The translations under genes and the position numbers were made by a program. A DNA stretch of 64,000 nt, from NCBI GenBank assembly GCA_964349555.1, contig CAYGGK010000002.1:9258-73257 (forward strand). Direction: 5' to 3'. Positions 755 through 51,466 of this stretch are shown one piece after another (positions within the stretch are counted from its first letter, which is position 1; every line of letters begins with the position of its first letter). The notes beneath the pieces are model-generated. The model was not told the DNA's origin, did not search any database, and was given only the letters and a program-made list of their open reading frames with translations. The stretch comes from an uncultured Candidatus Saccharibacteria bacterium (lineage in GTDB: Bacteria > Patescibacteriota > Minisyncoccia > Phycocordibacterales > Phycocordibacteraceae).

Positions 755-2992
755 ATGAGTCGTAAAAATGACAATGGTGCCAAGCGCTCTCGGACGCGAG
801 AGAAGACGGTCAGAGAGTACGGTACGCTTATTCGTTATGCCTCTACTATCGTGCTGTTGGCCGTCGGCGTGCTCCTTACGCTTGCCCTCTTCGGCGCGGC
901 CGGCCCGGTGGGTACGGCGGTCTTCGCCGCAAGTTATTCAATAGTTGGTATCGGCGCTTTTCTTCTCCCGGTGGCTTTAATTGTGGGGGGGCTTTATGCG
1001 GGATTCGGTCGCCCGACTCTCGCCCCTCTCACTACCTCGGGCGTTATCATCATTACCGCTTCAGTGCTTGCCTTCGCGGGACTCTTCCCCGACGCGGACT
1101 TCGGCGGGAAGACCGGGACCTTACTCGGTGAAGTGCTTGCCGGATTTTTTGGCTTCTGGGGAGCGTTGGTGCTTCTCATAGCGATTATCGCAGTCGGCAT
1201 CGTCATCCTGAGCGACATGGAGATGCTCTGGGCGCTTGTAAGTGAAAATGTTTCTTCTCTTTGGGAGCGGCTCCGCTCACGCAGTAAAGACGACGAAGAA
1301 CTCCCCGAGGAATTCACGGACGTCGTCGGCGTACCAGAGAACAACGACAGCCCTTACGCGCCTGAGGAGGTGCCAGAATCTTCTCAAACACAGGAGAGCG
1401 ATCCTGCGGTGACTGTTTTCTCCGCCAGAGGCGGACCCTCCTCTGGCGAAAATCGTTCCGGCATCGCGAACTTTGATGCCGAGTATGAGGCTCCTCCCCT
1501 CTCCATTCTCGGCGCGGACCGCGGACGCCCTGGTGTCGGGGACATAAAAGCGAATGCGAACATCATCAAACGCACCTTTCAGAACTTCGGCATTAATTTG
1601 GAGATGGACGAAGTCTCCGTCGGCCCGACCGTCACCCGATACGCGGTGAAGCCTGCTGAGGGCGTGCGCCTCTCAAAAATCGTTTCCCTCGCAAATAATC
1701 TTGAGCTCGCGCTCGCCGCGCATCCGGTGCGCATCGAGGCTCCTATCCCGGGGAAATCGCTCGTCGGCATTGAAGTGCCGAATACGGTGAAAGCGATGGT
1801 TGGTCTCGGCGGAATCCTGAGCGCCTCTGAGTGGTCTGACAGTACGAAACCTCTTCTCGCCGCGCTTGGGCGCGATATCACTGGCACACCGCACTACGTC
1901 AACGTCGCGAAGATGCCACACGCGCTCGTCGCGGGCGCAACCGGCTCCGGCAAAAGTGTCGCTATGCACGCGATTATCACTTCCCTGCTCTACCGAAACG
2001 GCCCCAACCAACTACGCTTTATCATGATTGATCCGAAGCGTGTGGAACTTACCGCGTATAACGGCATTCCGCACCTTCTCACCCCTGTCATCACCGACCC
2101 AAAGAAAGCTATCTATGCGCTTAAGTGGGCGGGTAAGGAGATGGAGCGCCGCTACAACATTCTAGAGACGGAGCGCGTACGCGATATTGATTCATACCAC
2201 TCAACTGTCTTTGAGAGAGCGAAGACAAAACAGGCGTCGGAGATGCCAGAGGCGCTTCCCTTCATCGTTATCGTTATAGACGAGCTCGCCGATATCATGC
2301 ACAGCTACCCGCGAGAACTTGAATCCTCTATTGTCCGCCTCGCACAGATGTCGCGTGCGACCGGTATCCACCTCATACTCTCCACTCAGCGTCCGTCGGT
2401 GAACGTCATCACCGGCCTTATCAAGGCAAACGTGCCGACACGCATGGCGCTCCAGGTCGCCTCCCAGATAGACTCGCGCACAATCCTCGACGGCTCCGGT
2501 GCCGAGACGCTACTCGGCGCCGGCGATATGCTCTATCTTTCAAGCGATATGCAGAAGCCTGTGCGTATTCAAACCGCCTTCATCAGCGAGAGCGAAGTAA
2601 AAAAGGTGGTGAGCTACATCCGTGCCCATAATGCGGGAGATCTTTCCAGCATAGACTTCGGCCTGTCCGGCCAGGGCGGTAATGGAGACTCGTCAGCTGA
2701 CGGCGGCGGTTTCGTAAACGGTGGCTTTGATGACGACGAAGAGATTGATGATGCGCTCTACGAGGACGCGCGTGCGGCGGTAGAAGCCGTCGGCCGCGCC
2801 TCAACCTCCTACCTCCAGCGCAAATTGAAAATCGGTTATTCGCGAGCGGCGCGGCTTATGGATGTGCTTGAAACAAAGGGCATTATCGGTCCCGCCGACG
2901 GATCAAAGCCGCGCGAGGTGCTTACCTCGCGAAATGCCGCAACCCAAAGCAGAACGACAGACATTGACGGAGATGAGGGTGATATTTCTTAA
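755..2992 (+). CDS. ftsK: DNA translocase FtsK/SpoIIIE (N-terminal TM helices, linker, C-terminal motor with Walker A GATGSGKS and gamma wHTH)
   Basis: ORF 689..2992; likely start at MSRKNDN (755); motifs VAGATGSGKSV, IVIDELADIM, SYLQRKLKIGYSRAARLMD (gamma domain). Confidence 0.9.
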   Translation: MSRKNDNGAKRSRTREKTVREYGTLIRYASTIVLLAVGVLLTLALFGAAGPVGTAVFAASYSIVGIGAFLLPVALIVGGLYAGFGRPTLAPLTTSGVIIITASVLAFAGLFPDADFGGKTGTLLGEVLAGFFGFWGALVLLIAIIAVGIVILSDMEMLWALVSENVSSLWERLRSRSKDDEELPEEFTDVVGVPENNDSPYAPEEVPESSQTQESDPAVTVFSARGGPSSGENRSGIANFDAEYEAPPLSILGADRGRPGVGDIKANANIIKRTFQNFGINLEMDEVSVGPTVTRYAVKPAEGVRLSKIVSLANNLELALAAHPVRIEAPIPGKSLVGIEVPNTVKAMVGLGGILSASEWSDSTKPLLAALGRDITGTPHYVNVAKMPHALVAGATGSGKSVAMHAIITSLLYRNGPNQLRFIMIDPKRVELTAYNGIPHLLTPVITDPKKAIYALKWAGKEMERRYNILETERVRDIDSYHSTVFERAKTKQASEMPEALPFIVIVIDELADIMHSYPRELESSIVRLAQMSRATGIHLILSTQRPSVNVITGLIKANVPTRMALQVASQIDSRTILDGSGAETLLGAGDMLYLSSDMQKPVRIQTAFISESEVKKVVSYIRAHNAGDLSSIDFGLSGQGGNGDSSADGGGFVNGGFDDDEEIDDALYEDARAAVEAVGRASTSYLQRKLKIGYSRAARLMDVLETKGIIGPADGSKPREVLTSRNAATQSRTTDIDGDEGDIS

Positions 2993-6345: not shown

Positions 6346-6798
6346 TTAGAATGGGATGTCCTCGGGATTAATCTCCTCGTCTGGATACTTAATCGACTCG
6401 TCATCCCTTCCGCCGGAGGCGGACCCGCCTTCGGCGGGCGGTTCCCCAACTCCTTGTCCGCCCCTCCCGCCATCGGCACCGAATTGGAAATTGTCCACGA
6501 CAATCTCGGTACGGTAATTTTTCTTTCCGCTCTCCTTATCGTCCCACGAGCGCGTCTGGATGCGCCCTTCAACAAAGATCCCGCGACCTTTTTTCATATA
6601 CTGCGCGATAACCTCGGCTGTCTTGCCGAATGCAACAATATTGTGGAACTCGGTCGCCTCTTGTTTTGCACCACTCTTATCCTTATAGGTACGGTTTGTC
6701 GCGATGCCGAAATTCGCGACACTGCCGCCAGACGGGAGCGCCTTCAGCTCCGGATCGCGGGTAAGGTTGCCATAGAGTAATACTTTGTTGAGGTACAT
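6346..6798 (-). CDS. ssb: single-stranded DNA-binding protein with Gly-rich acidic tail (tail carries an inserted palindromic element)
   Basis: MYLNKVLLYGNLTRDPELKALPSGGSVANFGIATNRTYKDKSG... OB fold; C-terminal DEEINPEDIPF tip; rpsF-ssb-rpsR synteny. Confidence 0.9.
   Translation of the reverse strand: MYLNKVLLYGNLTRDPELKALPSGGSVANFGIATNRTYKDKSGAKQEATEFHNIVAFGKTAEVIAQYMKKGRGIFVEGRIQTRSWDDKESGKKNYRTEIVVDNFQFGADGGRGGQGVGEPPAEGGSASGGRDDESIKYPDEEINPEDIPF
6410..6437. repeat. family-1 palindromic element inserted in-frame in the ssb tail (encodes PAEGGSASGGRD)
   Basis: CCGCCGGAGGCGG-AC-CCGCCTTCGGCGG; one arm mismatch. Confidence 0.85.
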
Positions 6799-10720: not shown

Positions 10721-12115
10721 TTATTCAATGGCGGAGCGGATACGGGAGGCGACTTCGGGAATGGAGAGGCGCTCTTGTTCGCCTGAGTCACGGTGGCGGA
10801 GTGTGACGGTATCTTTTCCGCCGGAGGCGGACCCGCCTCCGGCGGGGAGTTCTCCCAACGTTTCAAAGTCTATGGTAATGCAGAAAGGCGTACCGATCTC
10901 GTCTTGGCGGCGGTAGCGTTTGCCGATGTTGCCGTTATCGTCCCATGCGATTGCAGGATGGACTTTCTTGAGCTCGGCGCGCACTTCCCTCGCCTTCGCG
11001 ACCAGCTCGGGCTTATTCTTCAACAAGGGCGAGACCATCGCTTTTATCGGCGCGACCTTAGGCGAGAGCGCGAGATACGTGCGGGTTTCTTCACCCATAG
11101 TGTCTTCGCGATACGCATCAACTAATACGGCGAGAAGCATTCGCCCTACGCCGACTGACGACTCTATCACGTATGGGATAATTCTTTCTTTTGTTTCTTC
11201 ATTAAAATAACTCAAATCCTGTCCGCTCGCTTTTGCGTGATTCGTCAAATCGAAGTCAGTTCTATTATGAGTACCCCAAAGCTCCTTAAAGCCCTGTGGA
11301 AACTTGAAATAAATATCGTGCGCAGCAGAGGCGTAATGGGCGCGTTCGTTCTCTGCATGCTCGTGCCACTGCAGATTCTCCTCGCGTACACCAAGCACAT
11401 CGGTCATAAAATTCCACGCAACGTTCCTCCACGTTTCGTAAGCGACGGTCTGTGTTTCTGAATTGATAAAATACTGCATTTCCATTTGCTCGAGCTCGCG
11501 AACACGAAATATGAAGTCGCGTGGTGCTATTTCATTTCTAAATGCTTTCCCTATCTGCGCGATACCAAACGGCAATGCAGGATGAATTGTATCAATAACA
11601 TTTTTAAAATTCGTAAAAATAGATCCCGCTGTTTCTGGACGCAAATAGGCGACAGAAGAATCGTCCTCAATAGGGCCAACCCACGTCTTCATCATCATAT
11701 TGAACGTGCGTGGTGGTGTAAGTGTTTTTTCACCACAGGTTGGACACGCCGCATCGGTAAGAAGGTTGGTCAATTCAGCGATATTTGTACTGTCAGTTCC
11801 AGCAAGATGGTCGGCACGAAGCCGTGCTCCACAATTCTTACAATCAACAAGAGGGTCGGTAAATCCTGCAACGTGCCCGCTCGCCTCCCACAATTTCGGG
11901 TTCTGAATGATGGCGCCGTCAACACCAAAAATATCGTCTCTCTCTTGCACTATTTTGCGCCACCACAATTGCTTTAGGTTGTTTGCCAATTCGACACCAT
12001 ACGGCCCATAATCCCAAAAGCCTGCTATGCCTCCGTATATTTCACTCGCGGGGAAGACAAACCCGCGGCGCTTGCAAAGCGAGACGATTTTTTCCATCAA
12101 CTGCGAGTCGGCCAT
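10721..12115 (-). CDS. glyQS: glycyl-tRNA synthetase (dimeric class II GlyQS type)
   Basis: MADSQLMEKIVSLCKRRGFVFPASEIYGGIAGFWDYGPYGVELANN... class II motifs; start at internal Met (12115), since the ORF-track extension has no homology and would overlap the upstream gene. Confidence 0.9.
   Translation of the reverse strand: MADSQLMEKIVSLCKRRGFVFPASEIYGGIAGFWDYGPYGVELANNLKQLWWRKIVQERDDIFGVDGAIIQNPKLWEASGHVAGFTDPLVDCKNCGARLRADHLAGTDSTNIAELTNLLTDAACPTCGEKTLTPPRTFNMMMKTWVGPIEDDSSVAYLRPETAGSIFTNFKNVIDTIHPALPFGIAQIGKAFRNEIAPRDFIFRVRELEQMEMQYFINSETQTVAYETWRNVAWNFMTDVLGVREENLQWHEHAENERAHYASAAHDIYFKFPQGFKELWGTHNRTDFDLTNHAKASGQDLSYFNEETKERIIPYVIESSVGVGRMLLAVLVDAYREDTMGEETRTYLALSPKVAPIKAMVSPLLKNKPELVAKAREVRAELKKVHPAIAWDDNGNIGKRYRRQDEIGTPFCITIDFETLGELPAGGGSASGGKDTVTLRHRDSGEQERLSIPEVASRIRSAIE
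10818..10845. repeat. family-1 28-bp palindromic element CCGCCGGAGGCGG-AC-CCGCCTCCGGCGG inserted in-frame in the glyQS C-terminal domain (encodes PAGGGSASGGKD)
   Basis: Perfect 13-bp inverted arms; near-identical copies at 6410, 50082 and 50627. Confidence 0.85.
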
Positions 12116-42257: not shown

Positions 42258-42295
42258 CTGTTAACTTTTGGTGCGCGGTGAGGGACTTGAACCCC
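42258..42295 (-). other. tRNA 3' fragment (T-arm + acceptor 3' strand + CCA: GGGGGTTCAAGTCCCTCACCGCGCACCA); no matching 5' half
   Basis: Revcomp reads as a canonical T-loop/acceptor/CCA, but no D-arm or anticodon arm can be folded upstream; overlaps the 3' end of ORF 42261..42950. Confidence 0.45.
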
Positions 42296-42950
42296 CGAGT
42301 TCAGCTAATTTTTCAATCCACCCTTTTATAGTGAGAAAGATGATGGTGTCACACACGTATATTTGAAACGTACCGTACGGCAACGAATCTTTTTTTCCTT
42401 TACTCGCAGTGCTTGGCTTCGAATAGGTCTTATAAAACTGCCGGCGAGGTATCCCTGAAATTTGAGACCAATACTGTTCTGCTTTTTCTGCGTTCAAATG
42501 CGAAAAAGTATGCACATGTCCGCGGAATTTATTCGACGGGACATTAAACACTTCACGAAAGAACAACATCATGAATCGGATGACTTTGGGATCACTGTTT
42601 GAAATTCTAGCCATTCCGGTTTTTGTTTTTCCTCCCTCGCCCCAATACAAAGCAGATCCTACTAGGAGCAAATCCTGTTTAGATAGTGTCGGGATTTTTT
42701 CTTTTGCTGCGTCGATTACTATCCGATGCCGCTGAAGCGTTCCTTTTATCCTGCTTTTTCTCCTTCTCTCTATAGACTCAACACTGCGACCGTGTGTGCT
42801 TAGTTTTTTCCTCTGCTGTTCCGATAACTCTATATCACGAACCCATAAACTAACACTTGCTTTAGAAACACCTAACTCACGTACTATCTCATTGAGCGAC
42901 ATACCTTTCCCCCGAAGGAGCCTGGCTCGTTCTTGTTCTTCTTTTTTCAT
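42261..42950 (-). CDS. HTH-domain protein of unknown function (low GC; weak LAGLIDADG-like motif)
   Basis: N-terminal HTH GMSLNEIVRELGVSKASVSLWVRD; LLLVGSALYWGEGGK faintly resembles a LAGLIDADG block; sits between a tRNA 3' fragment and a tRNA cluster. Confidence 0.35.
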   Translation of the reverse strand: MKKEEQERARLLRGKGMSLNEIVRELGVSKASVSLWVRDIELSEQQRKKLSTHGRSVESIERRRKSRIKGTLQRHRIVIDAAKEKIPTLSKQDLLLVGSALYWGEGGKTKTGMARISNSDPKVIRFMMLFFREVFNVPSNKFRGHVHTFSHLNAEKAEQYWSQISGIPRRQFYKTYSKPSTASKGKKDSLPYGTFQIYVCDTIIFLTIKGWIEKLAELGGSSPSPRTKS

Positions 42951-49986: not shown

Positions 49987-50422
49987 GGGCAATACGTGAA
50001 AGGTAACTGGTAAGAATAAGCGCGGCGGCAGAGGCATCGACGGCCTCGCGCCTTTTGGGCGCGCGTGTCTTTCTCTCTTTTCCACCGAAGGCGGACCCGC
50101 CCTCGGCGGTTGCAGGCGCGCGACGCGCCTGCGCACTCGTGAGCCCTTCCCACTCATAGAAGACTGGGACGCCGCACCGAGCCGCGACTTCTTCTCCGAG
50201 CTGTTTTGCCCCTTTCGCGGCAGGGTTTTCCTTTCCCGCATAATCAAGCGAGTTGCCGACCACAAGGGCACGCACGTCCTCTTTCGCTATAATTGCGCAA
50301 ATGTGTTCAACTGCCTTGGGAGTGTTCGGGACGACCAAGTGAGGAAACCCCATCGTGCCCGTCTCATCAGAGAGCGCGAGACCAATCTTCTTGGTGCCGT
50401 AGTCAATGCCAAGATGTCGCAT
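49979..50422 (-). CDS. ruvX: YqgF/RuvX-like Holliday-junction resolvase / pre-16S rRNA nuclease
   Basis: MRHLGIDYGTKKIGLALSDETG.. RNase H-like N-terminus; carries the family-1 insert PATAEGGSAFGGKE. Confidence 0.8.
   Translation of the reverse strand: MRHLGIDYGTKKIGLALSDETGTMGFPHLVVPNTPKAVEHICAIIAKEDVRALVVGNSLDYAGKENPAAKGAKQLGEEVAARCGVPVFYEWEGLTSAQARRAPATAEGGSAFGGKERKTRAPKRREAVDASAAALILTSYLSRIAHE
50082..50109. repeat. family-1 palindromic element (degenerate copy CCACCGAAGGCGG-AC-CCGCCCTCGGCGG) in-frame in ruvX
   Basis: Two arm mismatches relative to a perfect palindrome. Confidence 0.7.
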
Positions 50423-50514
50423 ATAAAGAGAAGTGTATGATATAACCTGGTTCTGTGCACGACAGGACAGGGATGGGTGAAAATTTTAGATCTTTGAAAA
50501 ATTCTACACGGAGC

Positions 50515-50601
50515 GGAGGGGTCGCATAGTTGGTCTAGTGCGGTGGACTTGAAATCCACTGTGCCGTAAGGCACCGCGAGTTCGAATCTCGCCCCCTCCG
50601 C
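50515..50601 (+). tRNA. tRNA-Ser (anticodon TGA), type II
   Basis: Manual fold: acceptor GGAGGGG/CCCCTCC, anticodon loop CTTGAAA, long variable arm TGTGCCGTAAGGCAC, T-loop TTCGAAT. Confidence 0.8.
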
Positions 50602-50605
50602 TCCG

Positions 50606-50712
50606 TCGCGGAATCTAGAGCTTTGCCCGCCAGAGGCGGGTCCGCCTCTGGCGGAAAAACTAGCGGGCCAAAAGCCCTTGTGGGTTCGAGTCCCACCCCT
50701 TCCGCAGATGAT
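50606..50712 (+). other. tRNA-like element (5' GCGGAAT..., 3' GTGGGTTCGAGTCCCAC-CCCTTCCGCA) disrupted by or containing a family-1 palindrome at 50627..50654
   Basis: Good T-arm and 3' acceptor-like strand, but no canonical D/anticodon arms; the palindrome plus flanking CTAG..CTAG occupies the central region. Confidence 0.4.
50627..50654. repeat. family-1 palindromic element, perfect copy CCGCCAGAGGCGG-GT-CCGCCTCTGGCGG inside the tRNA-like locus
   Basis: 13-bp perfect arms; central dinucleotide GT (reverse orientation relative to plus-strand copies at 6410/10818/50082). Confidence 0.85.
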
Positions 50713-50728
50713 GCGCTACTATGGAGCA

Positions 50729-51466
50729 ATGACAAAAGTCTTAGGAATTCTTCCCGCGCGCCTCGGCTCCACCCGCCTCCCACGCAAGATGCTCGCCGAC
50801 ATTGACGGGAAGCCTCTTATTTACCACAGCTGGAGCCAAGCAAAGAAAGCAAAACTCCTTGATGACGTTATTATCGCTACCGACGCGGAGGAAATTTCCG
50901 ATGCTGTAACTCCGTACGGAGCAGAAACCATGATGACGCCAGTGGAGATAGCTTCTGGAAGCGACCGTGTCGCATACGCCGCCGCGCACTACACGAAGTT
51001 TCAGCCGGATATTGTCGTAAACATCCAAGGGGATGAGCCTCTTATGCCGCCCGAGGCCATTGATGCCTGCGTGCAGGCGCTGATAGACGACTAGAGCGCA
51101 GTCGTAGCGACGCCTTCAACAAGGTTCATCCGCGAGGGCGATATACATTCTCCTAACTTCGTAAAAGTAGTAACGGATACGAACGGAAACGCGCTTTACT
51201 TTTCGCGTTCGCTCATTCCCTTCCCTCGCGATGAATACAAGACATTTTGGAAACACCTCGGCTTGTATGCGTTCAGAAGAGATTTTCTTGCTACCTATGT
51301 CACACTACCTCAGACGCCCCTAGAGCTTGCAGAGAAATTGGAACAGCTTCGCATCCTCGAGAATGGGTATAAAATTAAAGTCGTGCAAGGAGTATTCAAT
51401 ACGCTTGAGGTGAACACAGCAGAAGAGCTTGAAAGCGTACGGCAGATTGTCGCTACAAGAAAATAG
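50729..51466 (+). pseudogene. kdsB: 3-deoxy-manno-octulosonate cytidylyltransferase (CMP-KDO synthetase) interrupted by a single in-frame TAG at 51092..51094
   Basis: ORFs 50678..51094 and 51263..51466 are in the same frame. The 56 codons between them translate without stops to KdsB-like sequence (..NFVKVVTDTNGNALYFSRSLIPFPRDEY..FWKHLGLYAFRRDFL). Confidence 0.7.

Follow-up and report, generated by a model that had tools for sequence, protein, structure and literature searches.

Downstream of the tRNA-Ser(TGA) gene located at 50515-50601 of the window, the whole 64-kb stretch of DNA analysed here, a locus (50606-50712) shows parts of a tRNA gene around a palindrome, and the question it raises is whether this sequence is a tRNA gene, a new RNA gene or the remnant of a disrupted one. 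From 5' to 3' the locus contains GCGGAAT, CTAG, the palindrome CCGCCAGAGGCGG-GT-CCGCCTCTGGCGG (50627-50654), a second CTAG, GGGCCAAAAGCCC, the T arm GTGGG-TTCGAGT-CCCAC and CCCTTCCGCA, and its neighbours in the window are ruvX, a gene encoding a tRNA-binding protein, pilM, a kdsB-like gene and atpCD. An earlier note on this DNA had described these features, which are all present where it placed them, and had proposed either a tRNA gene invaded and inactivated by the palindrome or the remnant of an att site. According to the evidence presented below, the segment 50608-50705 is very probably the dead right-hand relic of a tRNA-Ser(UGA) gene, which was split in its anticodon loop by a mobile cassette containing a nuclease gene and a tRNA gene.

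Identity of the sequence downstream of tRNA-Ser(UGA)

The last part of the locus (50656-50705, plus strand) corresponds to the 3' half of a tRNA-Ser(UGA) gene, from nt 36 to the 3' end, and is identical at 50 of 50 positions to the intact tRNA-Ser(tga) genes of L011, L015 and L055, and at 47-49 of 50 to those of five others; this identity confirms the former tRNA gene that the earlier note had recognised. The half contains the loop nucleotides A36-A38 and ACTAG, the anticodon-stem 3' strand; these are followed by GGGCCAAAAGCCC as the variable arm, by the T arm, by CCCTTCC as the 3' strand of the acceptor stem, and by G73 with a single additional C. A 25-mer taken from it matches intact tRNA-Ser(tga) genes in eight Patescibacteria, and also three loci with the architecture of the window. 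Alignment to canonical tRNA-Ser shows that the two CTAG motifs flanking the palindrome are the old anticodon stem, and that GGGCCAAAAGCCC is a class-II variable arm. Upstream of the 3' half there is a 30-bp palindromic insert (50626-50655, plus strand), formed by C, CCGCCAGAGGCGG-GT-CCGCCTCTGGCGG and A, which is located between anticodon-loop nt 35 and 36, at a position where canonical genes show an uninterrupted CTTG|AAAAC. The palindrome is therefore placed within the anticodon loop and does not stand in place of the D and anticodon arms, as had been suggested. Upstream of the insert, only about 18 decayed nucleotides of the old D-stem and anticodon-stem strand are left in the window (50608-50625, plus strand), and they were recognised by alignment to the canonical ...AAGGAACTAGTCTTG and also to the corresponding fragments at five orthologous loci, to which they are 50-58% identical. 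In this piece, GCGGAAT corresponds to the 3' strand of the D stem together with nt 26, CTAG (50615-50618) to the anticodon-stem 5' strand and ...TTTG to loop nt 32-35. GCGGAAT had been taken for the 5' acceptor strand; besides its alignment to the D stem, its pairing with TTCCGC is absent at the orthologous loci. The linker TCCGTC (50602-50607, plus strand), which is AGT or ACT at other loci, separates the relic from the tRNA gene upstream.

The locus is inactive, as the earlier note had held: over 50602-50712 neither ARAGORN nor Rfam called a tRNA, and the covariance models gave no tRNA match spanning the region. The top match was tRNA-Sec, with 17.8 bits, a threshold of 47 and E = 0.54, and at E <= 10 Rfam returned only sub-threshold noise (this tRNA-Sec match, Y RNA and a tymovirus tRNA-like structure). 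The cloverleaf is incomplete, since the D arm and the acceptor 5' strand are absent and the anticodon loop is interrupted by 30 bp. The idea that the palindrome alone inactivated the gene does not hold, because the 5' strand of the acceptor stem is also gone, as is most of the D arm, and excision of the insert restores nothing: a tRNA is still not called in the window minus the 30-bp insert, and none of 6021 single excisions (6-79 nt, across 50602-50725) gives a tRNA call with ARAGORN. The intron, low-threshold, mitochondrial and tmRNA settings of the same program produced only spurious calls of low score. A tRNA-Ser 5' half, sought across the 64-kb window with a split tRNA in mind, was not found, and the sole match to a second T arm in the window (42280) is an unrelated site. 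Group I or other introns were absent at the Rfam gathering threshold in the window, at E <= 10 in 50450-50800, and at E <= 1 in the complete cassette of L042 (3950-4600). As for structure, the RNA fold of 50606-50712 shows z = -3.9 and the DNA hairpin z = -5.0, both beyond what chance would give. Pair counts over six loci rule out a conserved cloverleaf-like fold; the four-way-junction fold of the window is likewise not conserved, its acceptor-like helix being 64.5% paired and its CUAG helix being found in the window only.

The cassette at orthologous loci

A tRNA-Ser(UGA) is present at this position in relatives. Through their RuvX homologues, L001, L003 and L010 seemed at first to have no tRNA there, and their tRNA-Ser was then found beyond a DUF5652 gene. 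The orthologous loci and the window have a common neighbourhood (ruvX ... 157-aa gene ... tRNA-Arg(GCG)), and in the relatives the full order is as follows: the 5' half of a tRNA-Ser(UGA), a palindrome, an ORF encoding an 86-aa GIY-YIG protein, an intact tRNA-Ser(UGA), a short fragment, a second palindrome, and the 3' half. This cassette is complete in L016, L028, L042 and L059 and partly deleted in L058 and L060. In the four complete loci, the displaced 5' half, once joined with the 3' half, gives a sequence which ARAGORN calls as tRNA-Ser(tga). The truncation point of the short fragment (CCGC-AGT-GGA(A)C...) is common to the six loci, and an insert of the same kind as that of the window is located at the same place in L016, L028, L042, L058 and L059 (87-97% identity). 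L016, L028, L042 and L058 were retrieved by exact match to conserved sequence, which introduces an ascertainment bias; L058 was the one additional locus given by a metagenome scan with the junction pattern. Two loci were found independently: L059, in which the 3' half is perfect, and L060, in which it is decayed.

Compared with the full cassette, the 5' half and the first palindrome are missing from the window, and only the tail of the ORF is left; the intact tRNA (50515-50601, plus strand) and the right junction have been kept. This tRNA (ARAGORN; Rfam RF00005 tRNA, 58.8 bits) is orthologous to the one located 3-10 nt past the GIY-YIG ORF in L016, L028, L042, L058, L059 and L060; it is the replacement, or cassette, copy, and presumably the functional gene. 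The ORF tail is a relic of about the last 15 codons (50464-50514, plus strand) in which an open reading frame no longer remains. These 50 nt preceding the tRNA show 57-76% nucleotide identity with the ORF 3' ends of L016, L028, L042, L058 and L059; a tblastn comparison of 50464-50505 with the nuclease gives 9 of 14 amino acids, which is not significant alone, and the position is syntenic.

The loci also differ from each other in their junctions. Both palindromes of one locus carry the same private variants (GAAGG in L016, CTAC in L059), and a CCGA-type fragment is combined with a CTAG-type 3' half in L016, L042 and L059. The 5' and 3' halves are not always complementary, with acceptor and anticodon stems mismatched in L016 and L028. 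Since halves are mismatched in several loci, their history includes either two or more events or an exchange by recombination between different variants of tRNA-Ser.

The cassette ORF matches the Pfam GIY-YIG family with E values of 2e-8 to 9e-10 and scores of 34.8-39.2 bits (curated cutoff 22.6). Y5, Y16, G18, R27, H31, N32 and E63, which we take to be the catalytic residues, are invariant across 17 homologues. The proteins of this family have 82-99 aa and show no NCBIfam, PHROG or single-sequence PDB match; the UPF0213 structures 1ywl and 1zg2 were reached by the homologue profile only. The 64-kb window contains no intact gene of this family, only the relic of about 50 nt. Every one of the homologue contexts examined adjoins a tRNA gene or tRNA fragment: L061 shows a tRNA-Ser(CGA) 5' half plus palindrome, and a truncated Phage_integrase ORF adjoining the GIY-YIG gene; L064 shows fragment, palindrome and 3' half; L067 has another insert, a 62-nt hairpin, at the same 35/36 position; L062/63 show palindrome, ORF and tRNA-Ser, and L065/66 a duplication of the tRNA 3' end. 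In L016, L028, L042, L059 and L062 a palindrome is always located 6-11 nt upstream of the ORF start.

The 30-bp palindrome, proposed spread of the cassette and other explanations

The 13-mer arm of the palindrome shows seven copies in the window with at most one mismatch, against 0.07 expected, and 30-bp inserts are located in frame in the SSB gene (6409-6438, minus strand, encoding PAEGGSASGG), in the glycyl-tRNA synthetase (GlyRS) gene (10817-10846, minus strand, PAGGGSASGG) and, as degenerate copies, in ruvX (50081-50110, minus strand, ...TAEGGSAFGG...) and in an FtsK-like gene (1421-1450, plus strand, SARGGPSSGE). Within the window, the perfect copy of the relic, assigned by the earlier note to its family 1, is indeed unique among the copies, both in having the GT centre on the plus strand and in its RNA-gene context. 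Its proposed agreement in orientation, relative to transcription, with three coding-sequence copies is correct for SSB and GlyRS and wrong for the degenerate FtsK copy, which is in the opposite orientation. The ruvX copy, a fourth one that had not been listed, agrees with the palindrome of the window in orientation relative to transcription. The palindrome is also present in the D loop of the 5' fragments of L058 and L060. In ruvX the insert is an exact indel of 30 bp, filled in the window, L008 and L058 (n = 3) and empty in L001, L002, L003, L010, L059 and L060 (n = 6); these filled and empty sites give the same insert size as the tRNA relic, and their distribution is patchy relative to RuvX relatedness. 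The unit is one whole palindrome, with A/G-rich 3' flanks (AAAA, AAAG, AGGG, GAAA) and no unambiguous target-site duplication visible. The GIY-YIG protein is the only enzyme candidate associated with it, and the palindrome probably represents a mobilisable module or a recombination joint of the element family. As a terminator it was rejected: there is no plus-strand hairpin with a T tract, and a weak minus-strand match lies on the variable-arm hairpin only.

Because the palindrome inserts alone into ruvX, SSB, GlyRS and FtsK, occurs in the D loops of L058 and L060 mentioned above, and is found in a window without a GIY-YIG gene, it could be thought that a complete second tRNA gene beside tRNA-Ser was struck by the palindrome alone and decayed in situ, the GIY-YIG gene of the relatives being an unrelated neighbour. 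This explanation, which we regard as very unlikely, is already contradicted by the shared architecture: the relic, which starts 6 nt past the neighbouring tRNA, is about 20 nt short at its 5' end, L016, L028, L042, L058, L059 and L060 show the same truncation point and the missing 5' half across the GIY-YIG ORF and the intact tRNA, the ORF tail still lies upstream of the tRNA in the window, and GIY-YIG homologues of 44-57% identity again adjoin palindrome-split pieces of tRNA-Ser. The att remnant of the earlier note stands insofar as the relic is a junction of a mobile element. Duplicated tRNA 3' parts at island ends are a classical signature of islands, anticodon loops are known crossover points, and a truncated Phage_integrase ORF adjoins the GIY-YIG gene in L061, all of which would suit an attR/attL-type remnant of a tyrosine-integrase island or prophage attached at the tRNA-Ser gene. 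In this integrase form the proposal is extremely improbable, given that integrase and phage genes are absent around the window locus and in L016, L028, L042, L059 and L060, that the direct repeats are separated by only about 400 bp (the ORF and the tRNA), that the 3' half of the adjacent intact tRNA differs and so is not the repeat partner, and that a scan of 2.9 million viral contigs for the palindrome found none.

A relic left by a mobile cassette agrees with several comparisons between strains and loci. L008 and L009 have identical RuvX, and L008 shows an uninterrupted tRNA-Ser where L009 has the 5' half plus palindrome. In this single pair, with L009 cut at the palindrome, 1 of 43 nt differs in the upstream flank versus about 8 of 21 in the D arm beside the insertion, a clustering which looks like a co-conversion tract. 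Third-codon identity in pairs among L016, L042, L059 and L060 is 56-78% for the GIY-YIG gene; the same pairs show 40-53% in ruvX and 45-63% in the 157-aa gene. In L028 the third-codon divergence is not discordant with the host genes. The private variants common to both palindromes of L016 and of L059 also favour mobility. Strain presence and absence, a cassette less diverged than host genes and the patchy 30-bp insert of ruvX all support a cassette that would be mobile. From its architecture and divergence patterns we infer a selfish homing-type element of the 'disrupt and replace' kind. In such a process, the GIY-YIG nuclease would break a resident tRNA-Ser gene in or close to its anticodon loop, and repair off a cassette-bearing donor would copy the cassette into the broken gene; because the target gene is essential, the cassette would bring its own tRNA-Ser(UGA) and so keep the host alive, and the displaced tRNA halves would then be free for decay or deletion, as in the window. 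Against homing counts the size of the 86-aa protein, which is approximately a bare catalytic domain and whose recognition of a site is unexplained.

The conservation of the right junction raises another explanation, in which the hairpin and the tRNA 3' half are not junk and constitute a selected functional cis or RNA element, possibly a homology arm or recognition module for invading canonical tRNA-Ser(UGA) genes, an operator of the nuclease, or a structured 3' trailer for processing of the replacement tRNA. Over six loci, identity is 94-100% in the 3' half and 87-97% in the insert, and about 50-70% in the adjacent fragment and the downstream flank, although four of these loci carry ascertainment bias, having been found by an exact match to the conserved sequence itself; conservation falls sharply at the CTTG|insert boundary, and the third-codon positions of ruvX are saturated in those loci (34-53%). 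The unit of fragment, hairpin and 3' half is also found beside the GIY-YIG homologues of 44-57% identity, with a different hairpin sequence in L067, and the constant palindrome before the ORF start would likewise fit a function. Nevertheless, such a function is unlikely. The remnant of L060 is heavily decayed, and therefore the unit is dispensable for that host; uncompensated palindrome mismatches are present in L028, L058 and L059, the only double change being in the window; the plus-strand terminator signature is absent and, as shown above, the four-way-junction fold is not shared. The half could also be kept 'fresh' by repeated homing into native genes that are conserved, or by gene conversion. 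The dead 3' half (94-100%) is, however, better conserved than the live replacement tRNA (70-99%), which a plain decaying relic does not predict. More tentatively, and as something that we consider possible but not probable, the cassette could be a natural 'cleave-and-rescue' selfish element, whose minimal UPF0213-type nuclease would destroy the resident tRNA-Ser(UGA) gene at the anticodon loop and which would provide a divergent tRNA-Ser(UGA) of its own; the conserved hairpin and 3' half would act as a targeting or homology module, conceivably as RNA, the in-frame palindromes being by-products of this machinery. This would explain how a dead half-gene can be 100% identical to its canonical target across saturated divergence.

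Since 50608-50705 is most probably the relic of a split tRNA-Ser(UGA), it would be best annotated as a pseudogene fragment, neither a tRNA nor a new RNA gene, and the adjoining tRNA-Ser as a replacement copy. The element itself consists of a very small nuclease gene and a spare essential tRNA, with the resident copy split in the anticodon loop. Its joints are marked by the 30-bp palindrome that also forms a 10-codon insert in the core genes ruvX, SSB, GlyRS and FtsK. If the proposed mechanism is correct, the element would represent a compact natural case of breaking an essential gene and bringing the rescue, the uncharacterised UPF0213 / small GIY-YIG family would gain a concrete function, and part of the odd insertions and tRNA-gene fragments in the reduced genomes of Patescibacteria would be accounted for. 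In practice the locus also calls for caution, as contigs of Logan assemblies break off here: those of the same species stop in the T arm of the relic in L005 and L006, and where the replacement tRNA ends in L007. The L009 contig stops inside the palindrome.

Comparison with known systems

A literature search found no description of the cassette or of the 30-bp element, and each of the systems with which they can be compared shares only some of their features. Among the Archaea, Nanoarchaeum has split tRNAs, and tRNA introns with a bulge-helix-bulge motif are known. Like the archaeal split tRNAs, the halves of the cassette are flanked by complementary GC-rich sequence, and the palindrome copies of L042 could in principle pair. 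Unlike the archaeal tRNAs, the insertion is located at nt 35/36 and not at 37/38, the bulge-helix-bulge geometry is absent, the host is bacterial and several halves are mismatched; moreover, an intact tRNA with the same anticodon is always present at the cassette loci, and a 5' half is wholly absent from the window.

With regard to the palindrome, the Rickettsia palindromic elements (RPEs), of about 100-150 bp, are located in frame in genes (PMC1779305), and the prokaryotic MITEs have been reviewed (PMC10969869). The 30-bp unit resembles both in being a short, GC-rich, palindromic and discrete insert, present or absent in housekeeping ORFs with the frame kept, and it is found in an RNA gene as well. 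It differs from them in its size of only 30 bp, in showing neither separate terminal inverted repeats nor a clear target-site duplication, and in its link to a GIY-YIG cassette and not to a transposase. The GC clusters of yeast mitochondria are further small palindromic elements of this sort.

Group I introns occur in the anticodon loops of bacterial tRNAs, and some of them contain homing endonuclease genes (PMC3984707). The cassette is similar to them as intervening DNA of an anticodon loop with an endonuclease ORF and presence/absence polymorphism, but it shows no ribozyme in the Rfam searches, and rescue would depend on a second intact tRNA inside the insert and not on splicing. The element of the Allomyces mitochondrial atp6 gene, reportedly described by Paquin, Laforest and Lang in 1994, is said to contain an endonuclease ORF and a replacement of the C-terminal segment, the resident part being left as a downstream pseudogene. 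As in this element, the endonuclease ORF of the cassette brings a working substitute and the displaced resident segment stays as a relic; the Allomyces element differs in affecting a mitochondrial protein gene, in replacing a C-terminal segment only and in carrying no tRNA, and it is not known to have palindromic junctions at its ends.

Finally, SegB of phage T4 is a GIY-YIG protein which has about 220 aa and includes a DNA-binding part; it is encoded by a free-standing gene among tRNA genes, and its spread has been demonstrated: it cleaves the homologous region of a genome without the gene, and the flanking tRNA sequence is co-converted (PMC2330249). The small GIY-YIG gene of the cassette is likewise located among tRNA genes and not inside an intron, and the L008/L009 differences beside the insertion resemble such a co-conversion tract, although the spread of the cassette is deduced from comparison of loci. 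In contrast with SegB and its phage host, the cassette protein is a UPF0213-like predicted nuclease of 82-99 aa, encoded in the chromosome of Patescibacteria, its target is split within the anticodon loop, the nuclease gene appears to travel together with a complete replacement tRNA, and a 30-bp palindrome is located at both junctions.

The remnant of a tRNA-Ser(UGA) gene

The tRNA-Ser(TGA) gene at 50515-50601 (+; ARAGORN, and 58.8 bits with the Rfam tRNA model) is followed on its 3' side by six bases, GCGGAAT, CTAG, a palindrome, a second CTAG, a small hairpin (GGGC-CAAAA-GCCC), a T arm of textbook form (GTGGG-TTCGAGT-CCCAC) and CCCTTCCGCA. The palindrome, CCGCCAGAGGCGG-GT-CCGCCTCTGGCGG, is perfect and spans 50627-50654. 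These sequence features are as the earlier note described them and exceed chance level: the palindrome arm, with at most one mismatch, shows seven copies in the window versus 0.07 expected, and the RNA fold of the tRNA-like stretch is a four-way junction (z = -3.9). Neither ARAGORN nor the Rfam tRNA model reports a tRNA in this stretch (50608-50705, hereafter the relic), where the top Rfam match is tRNA-Sec (17.8 bits, E = 0.54), and none of the 6021 variants obtained by removing in silico every single block of 6-79 nt gives an ARAGORN tRNA. The tRNA-like locus is a pseudogene fragment.

A 25-mer from the T-arm region, searched for as an exact match in bacterial genomes (one for each species), gave 47 loci; the sequence matched in eight Patescibacteria belongs to the 3' part of a normal tRNA-Ser(UGA), GGAAGGGTGCTCCGAATGGTTAAGGAACTAGTCTTGAAAACTAGCGGGCCAAAAGCCCTTGTGGGTTCGAGTCCCACCCCTTCCGC. 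Positions 50656-50705 are identical (50/50) to canonical tRNA-Ser(UGA) from A36 of the anticodon loop to the end; the long class-II variable arm of the tRNA is GGGCCAAAAGCCC in the relic and the anticodon stem strands are its two CTAGs. Comparison of the canonical loop, uninterrupted at CTTG|AAA, with the ...TTTG|30 bp|AAA of the window therefore places the palindrome, as an insert of 30 bp (50626-50655), between nucleotides 35 and 36.

Other explanations of the locus were considered. GCGGAAT, previously taken for the 5' acceptor strand, corresponds in the alignment to the 3' strand of the D stem plus nucleotide 26 (...AAGGAAC...), which makes that resemblance illusory. The T arm and the variable arm are invariant over six orthologous loci, as expected of inherited tRNA sequence. 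A conserved cloverleaf-like structure was rejected: only 64.5% of cells are paired in the acceptor-like helix over these loci and the CUAG helix is seen in the window only, thus the cloverleaf-like fold is leftover plus coincidence. The earlier note gave an att-site remnant as its second possibility; the locus is not an integrase att site, because both a nearby integrase and a matching repeat are absent, nor is it a group I tRNA intron, Rfam searches having found no ribozyme; an archaeal-type split or BHB-intron tRNA was also rejected.

Downstream of the relic, 50738-51466 (+) contains a gene encoding a KdsB-like cytidylyltransferase (Pfam CTP_transf_3) in a continuous frame with a single in-frame TAG (51092-51094); either the gene has recently become a pseudogene, or the stop reflects recoding or a sequencing problem. 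At this position relatives show a DUF5652 gene or nothing. Elsewhere in the window, 42261-42950 (-) is an ORF of 229 aa with a match to a resolvase-type HTH at the N terminus (Pfam HTH_7, 22.6 bits, slightly under the 23.8-bit cutoff), close to tRNA-Val (43046) and tRNA-Leu (43181). Its end overlaps a sequence resembling a tRNA 3' end, GGGGGTTCAAGTCCCTC-ACCGCGC-A-CCA (42270-42300, -), in which ARAGORN finds no tRNA or tmRNA and Rfam only a tmRNA 3' end (10.7 bits); this could be another tRNA fragment beside a mobile ORF.

A nuclease and replacement tRNA cassette in relatives

The arrangement and neighbourhood of the window (ruvX, tRNA-Ser(UGA), the relic, the gene of a 157-aa protein and tRNA-Arg(GCG)) are also present in three of the 47 loci (L016, L028 and L042) and in the metagenome contig L058. 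In L042, the left part contains the tRNA-Ser(UGA) 5' half to CTTG, the 30-bp palindrome, AAAAC and an 86-codon ORF, and the right part an intact tRNA-Ser(UGA) 3 nt past the ORF, AGT, a decayed 12-nt copy of the anticodon-stem strand to CTTG, the palindrome and the 3' half. L016, L028 and L059 show the same build, and in each of these four complete loci ARAGORN calls a tRNA-Ser(tga) once the displaced 5' half is joined directly to the 3' half. The ORF of this cassette encodes a GIY-YIG nuclease domain (Pfam PF01541, 34.8-39.2 bits, cutoff 22.6), and a profile of its homologues matches the UPF0213 structures 1ywl and 1zg2. Residues Y5, Y16, G18, R27, H31, N32 and E63 are invariant in 17 GIY-YIG homologues and, from general knowledge of the superfamily, we take them to be catalytic.

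Internal deletions are found in L058 and L060, and the largest is that of the window: it removed the 5' half together with the first palindrome, and of the ORF it left only about 50 nt, a tail (50464-50514) that ruvX now abuts. From this upstream tail and the syntenic cassette order in relatives, tRNA-Ser 50515-50601 is therefore the replacement copy of the cassette, and the relic is its right-hand junction plus the displaced 3' half. The earlier note was right about an inactivated tRNA gene bearing the palindrome; the lesion itself is a cassette insertion plus a deletion, not the palindrome alone.

In the acceptor and anticodon stems, some 5' halves are mismatched to the 3' half; recombination among variants of tRNA-Ser, or more than one hit, is therefore part of the history. 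The contig L001 contains an uninterrupted tRNA-Ser(UGA) (2588-2676, -) whose 5' half is the same as the displaced one of L042 (GGAAGGG...) but whose 3' acceptor strand is CCCCTCC; the resulting A4-C69 mismatch suggests that this gene arose by recombination between tRNA-Ser variants.

The split of the tRNA gene lies in its anticodon loop, and movement of the cassette is supported by its presence or absence at the site and by a divergence discordant with that of the hosts. The contigs L008 and L009, from separate samples, have identical RuvX; the site is an uninterrupted tRNA-Ser(UGA) in L008 and a 5' half followed by the palindrome, where the contig ends, in L009. They differ at 1/43 nt in the upstream flank and at about 8/21 positions in the D arm beside the insertion, as would be seen with a co-conversion tract. 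Third-codon identity among L016, L042, L059 and L060 is 56-78% for the GIY-YIG gene and, for the same pairs of genomes, 40-53% for ruvX and 45-63% for the 157-aa protein gene; by this measure the cassette is younger than its hosts. Private, even asymmetric, variants are common to both palindromes of one locus (GAAGG in L016, CTAC in L059), and the nuclease ORF is always accompanied by an intact tRNA of the same anticodon. We propose that the cassette nuclease would break the resident tRNA-Ser gene and the cassette would be copied in during repair from a cassette-bearing donor, its own tRNA keeping the cell alive, while the displaced halves would afterwards decay or be deleted.

The contigs of L005 and L006, independent Logan assemblies of the same species, stop at one and the same base of the relic T arm (...CCCACCC). 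The L007 contig stops at the replacement tRNA-Ser 3' end, and that of L009 within the palindrome. In metagenomes, assembly breaks at the palindrome and at the shared tRNA half.

The 30-bp palindromic unit and the dead 3' half

The 30-bp unit is also a discrete insert in ruvX, filled in the window, L008 and L058, while in six other genomes precisely this point is empty, with a distribution that does not track RuvX similarity; this supports movement of the unit itself. This clean presence or absence in nine genomes explains the 137-aa and 147-aa length classes of RuvX. The window shows in-frame inserts in ruvX (50081-50110) and in the genes encoding GlyRS (10817-10846), SSB (6409-6438) and FtsK (1421-1450), which encode ...GGSASGGK-like decapeptides (...GGSASGG... 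in one orientation). In L058 (~1621-1655) and L060 (~2375-2425), the displaced 5' fragment has a further copy in its D loop, which reads GGCAGAGTGGTCT|CCCGCCAGAG..., again directly before AA; insertion of the unit into tRNA is therefore not confined to a single loop. The palindrome could serve as a recombination joint, as an operator located 6-11 nt before the ORF or as a mobilisable module.

Identity among six loci is 94-100% in the dead 3' half, 87-97% in the insert, 70-99% in the live replacement tRNA, 50-93% in the adjacent fragment and about 50% in the downstream flank, with ruvX third-codon positions saturated. This conservation is partly ascertainment, because four loci were found via the same sequence; L059 and L060, found independently, have a perfect and a badly decayed 3' half, respectively. 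The conservation could also reflect selection on the element as such, gene conversion, or repeated homing into a native gene that is itself highly conserved, and we consider it improbable that the hairpin and 3' half form a functional element.

Distant homologues and known systems

More distant GIY-YIG homologues (44-57% identity; L061-L067) again adjoin tRNA pieces. L061 shows a tRNA-Ser(CGA) 5' half, a palindrome and an intact tRNA-Ser(CGA); L062 and L063 show a palindrome, the ORF and tRNA-Ser(UGA); L064 shows an intact tRNA-Ser, the ORF and then a fragment, a palindrome and a 3' half; and in L065 and L066 the ORF is flanked by duplicated tRNA 3' ends. Downstream of its split tRNA-Ser relic, L064 also contains a T-loop fragment (~2870-2930), GGTTCG|CCTGCCTGCCGGCAGGCAGG|AATCC, interrupted at TCG^AA by a different, perfect 20-bp palindrome. 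L067 (1-520) is a GC-rich IMG/VR contig classed as viral, in which a 44% identical ORF has on both sides a unit made up of a different, 62-nt GC hairpin at anticodon-loop position 35/36, the 3' half of a tRNA-Ser(UGA) and some 20 nt more; the contig end cuts the left unit. In L015, a small GIY-YIG ORF (1245-1478, -; 35% identical) is directly upstream of tRNA-Arg(TCT) (1159-1231, -), which suggests that the association of the family with tRNA genes is wider than tRNA-Ser.

No description of the cassette or of a family of 30-bp in-frame palindromic inserts was found in the literature searched; as a lead, the locus exposes such a family and a compact element that joins a nuclease to a rescue tRNA. 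Among the closest analogues of the cassette is the element of Allomyces atp6, in which an endonuclease element reportedly brings a substitute for the gene part that it displaces. Another of the closest working analogues is the T4 SegB type, a free-standing GIY-YIG homing endonuclease in a tRNA cluster (PMC2330249), and the closest analogues of the 30-bp unit are palindromic in-frame inserts such as the Rickettsia palindromic elements (PMC1779305).
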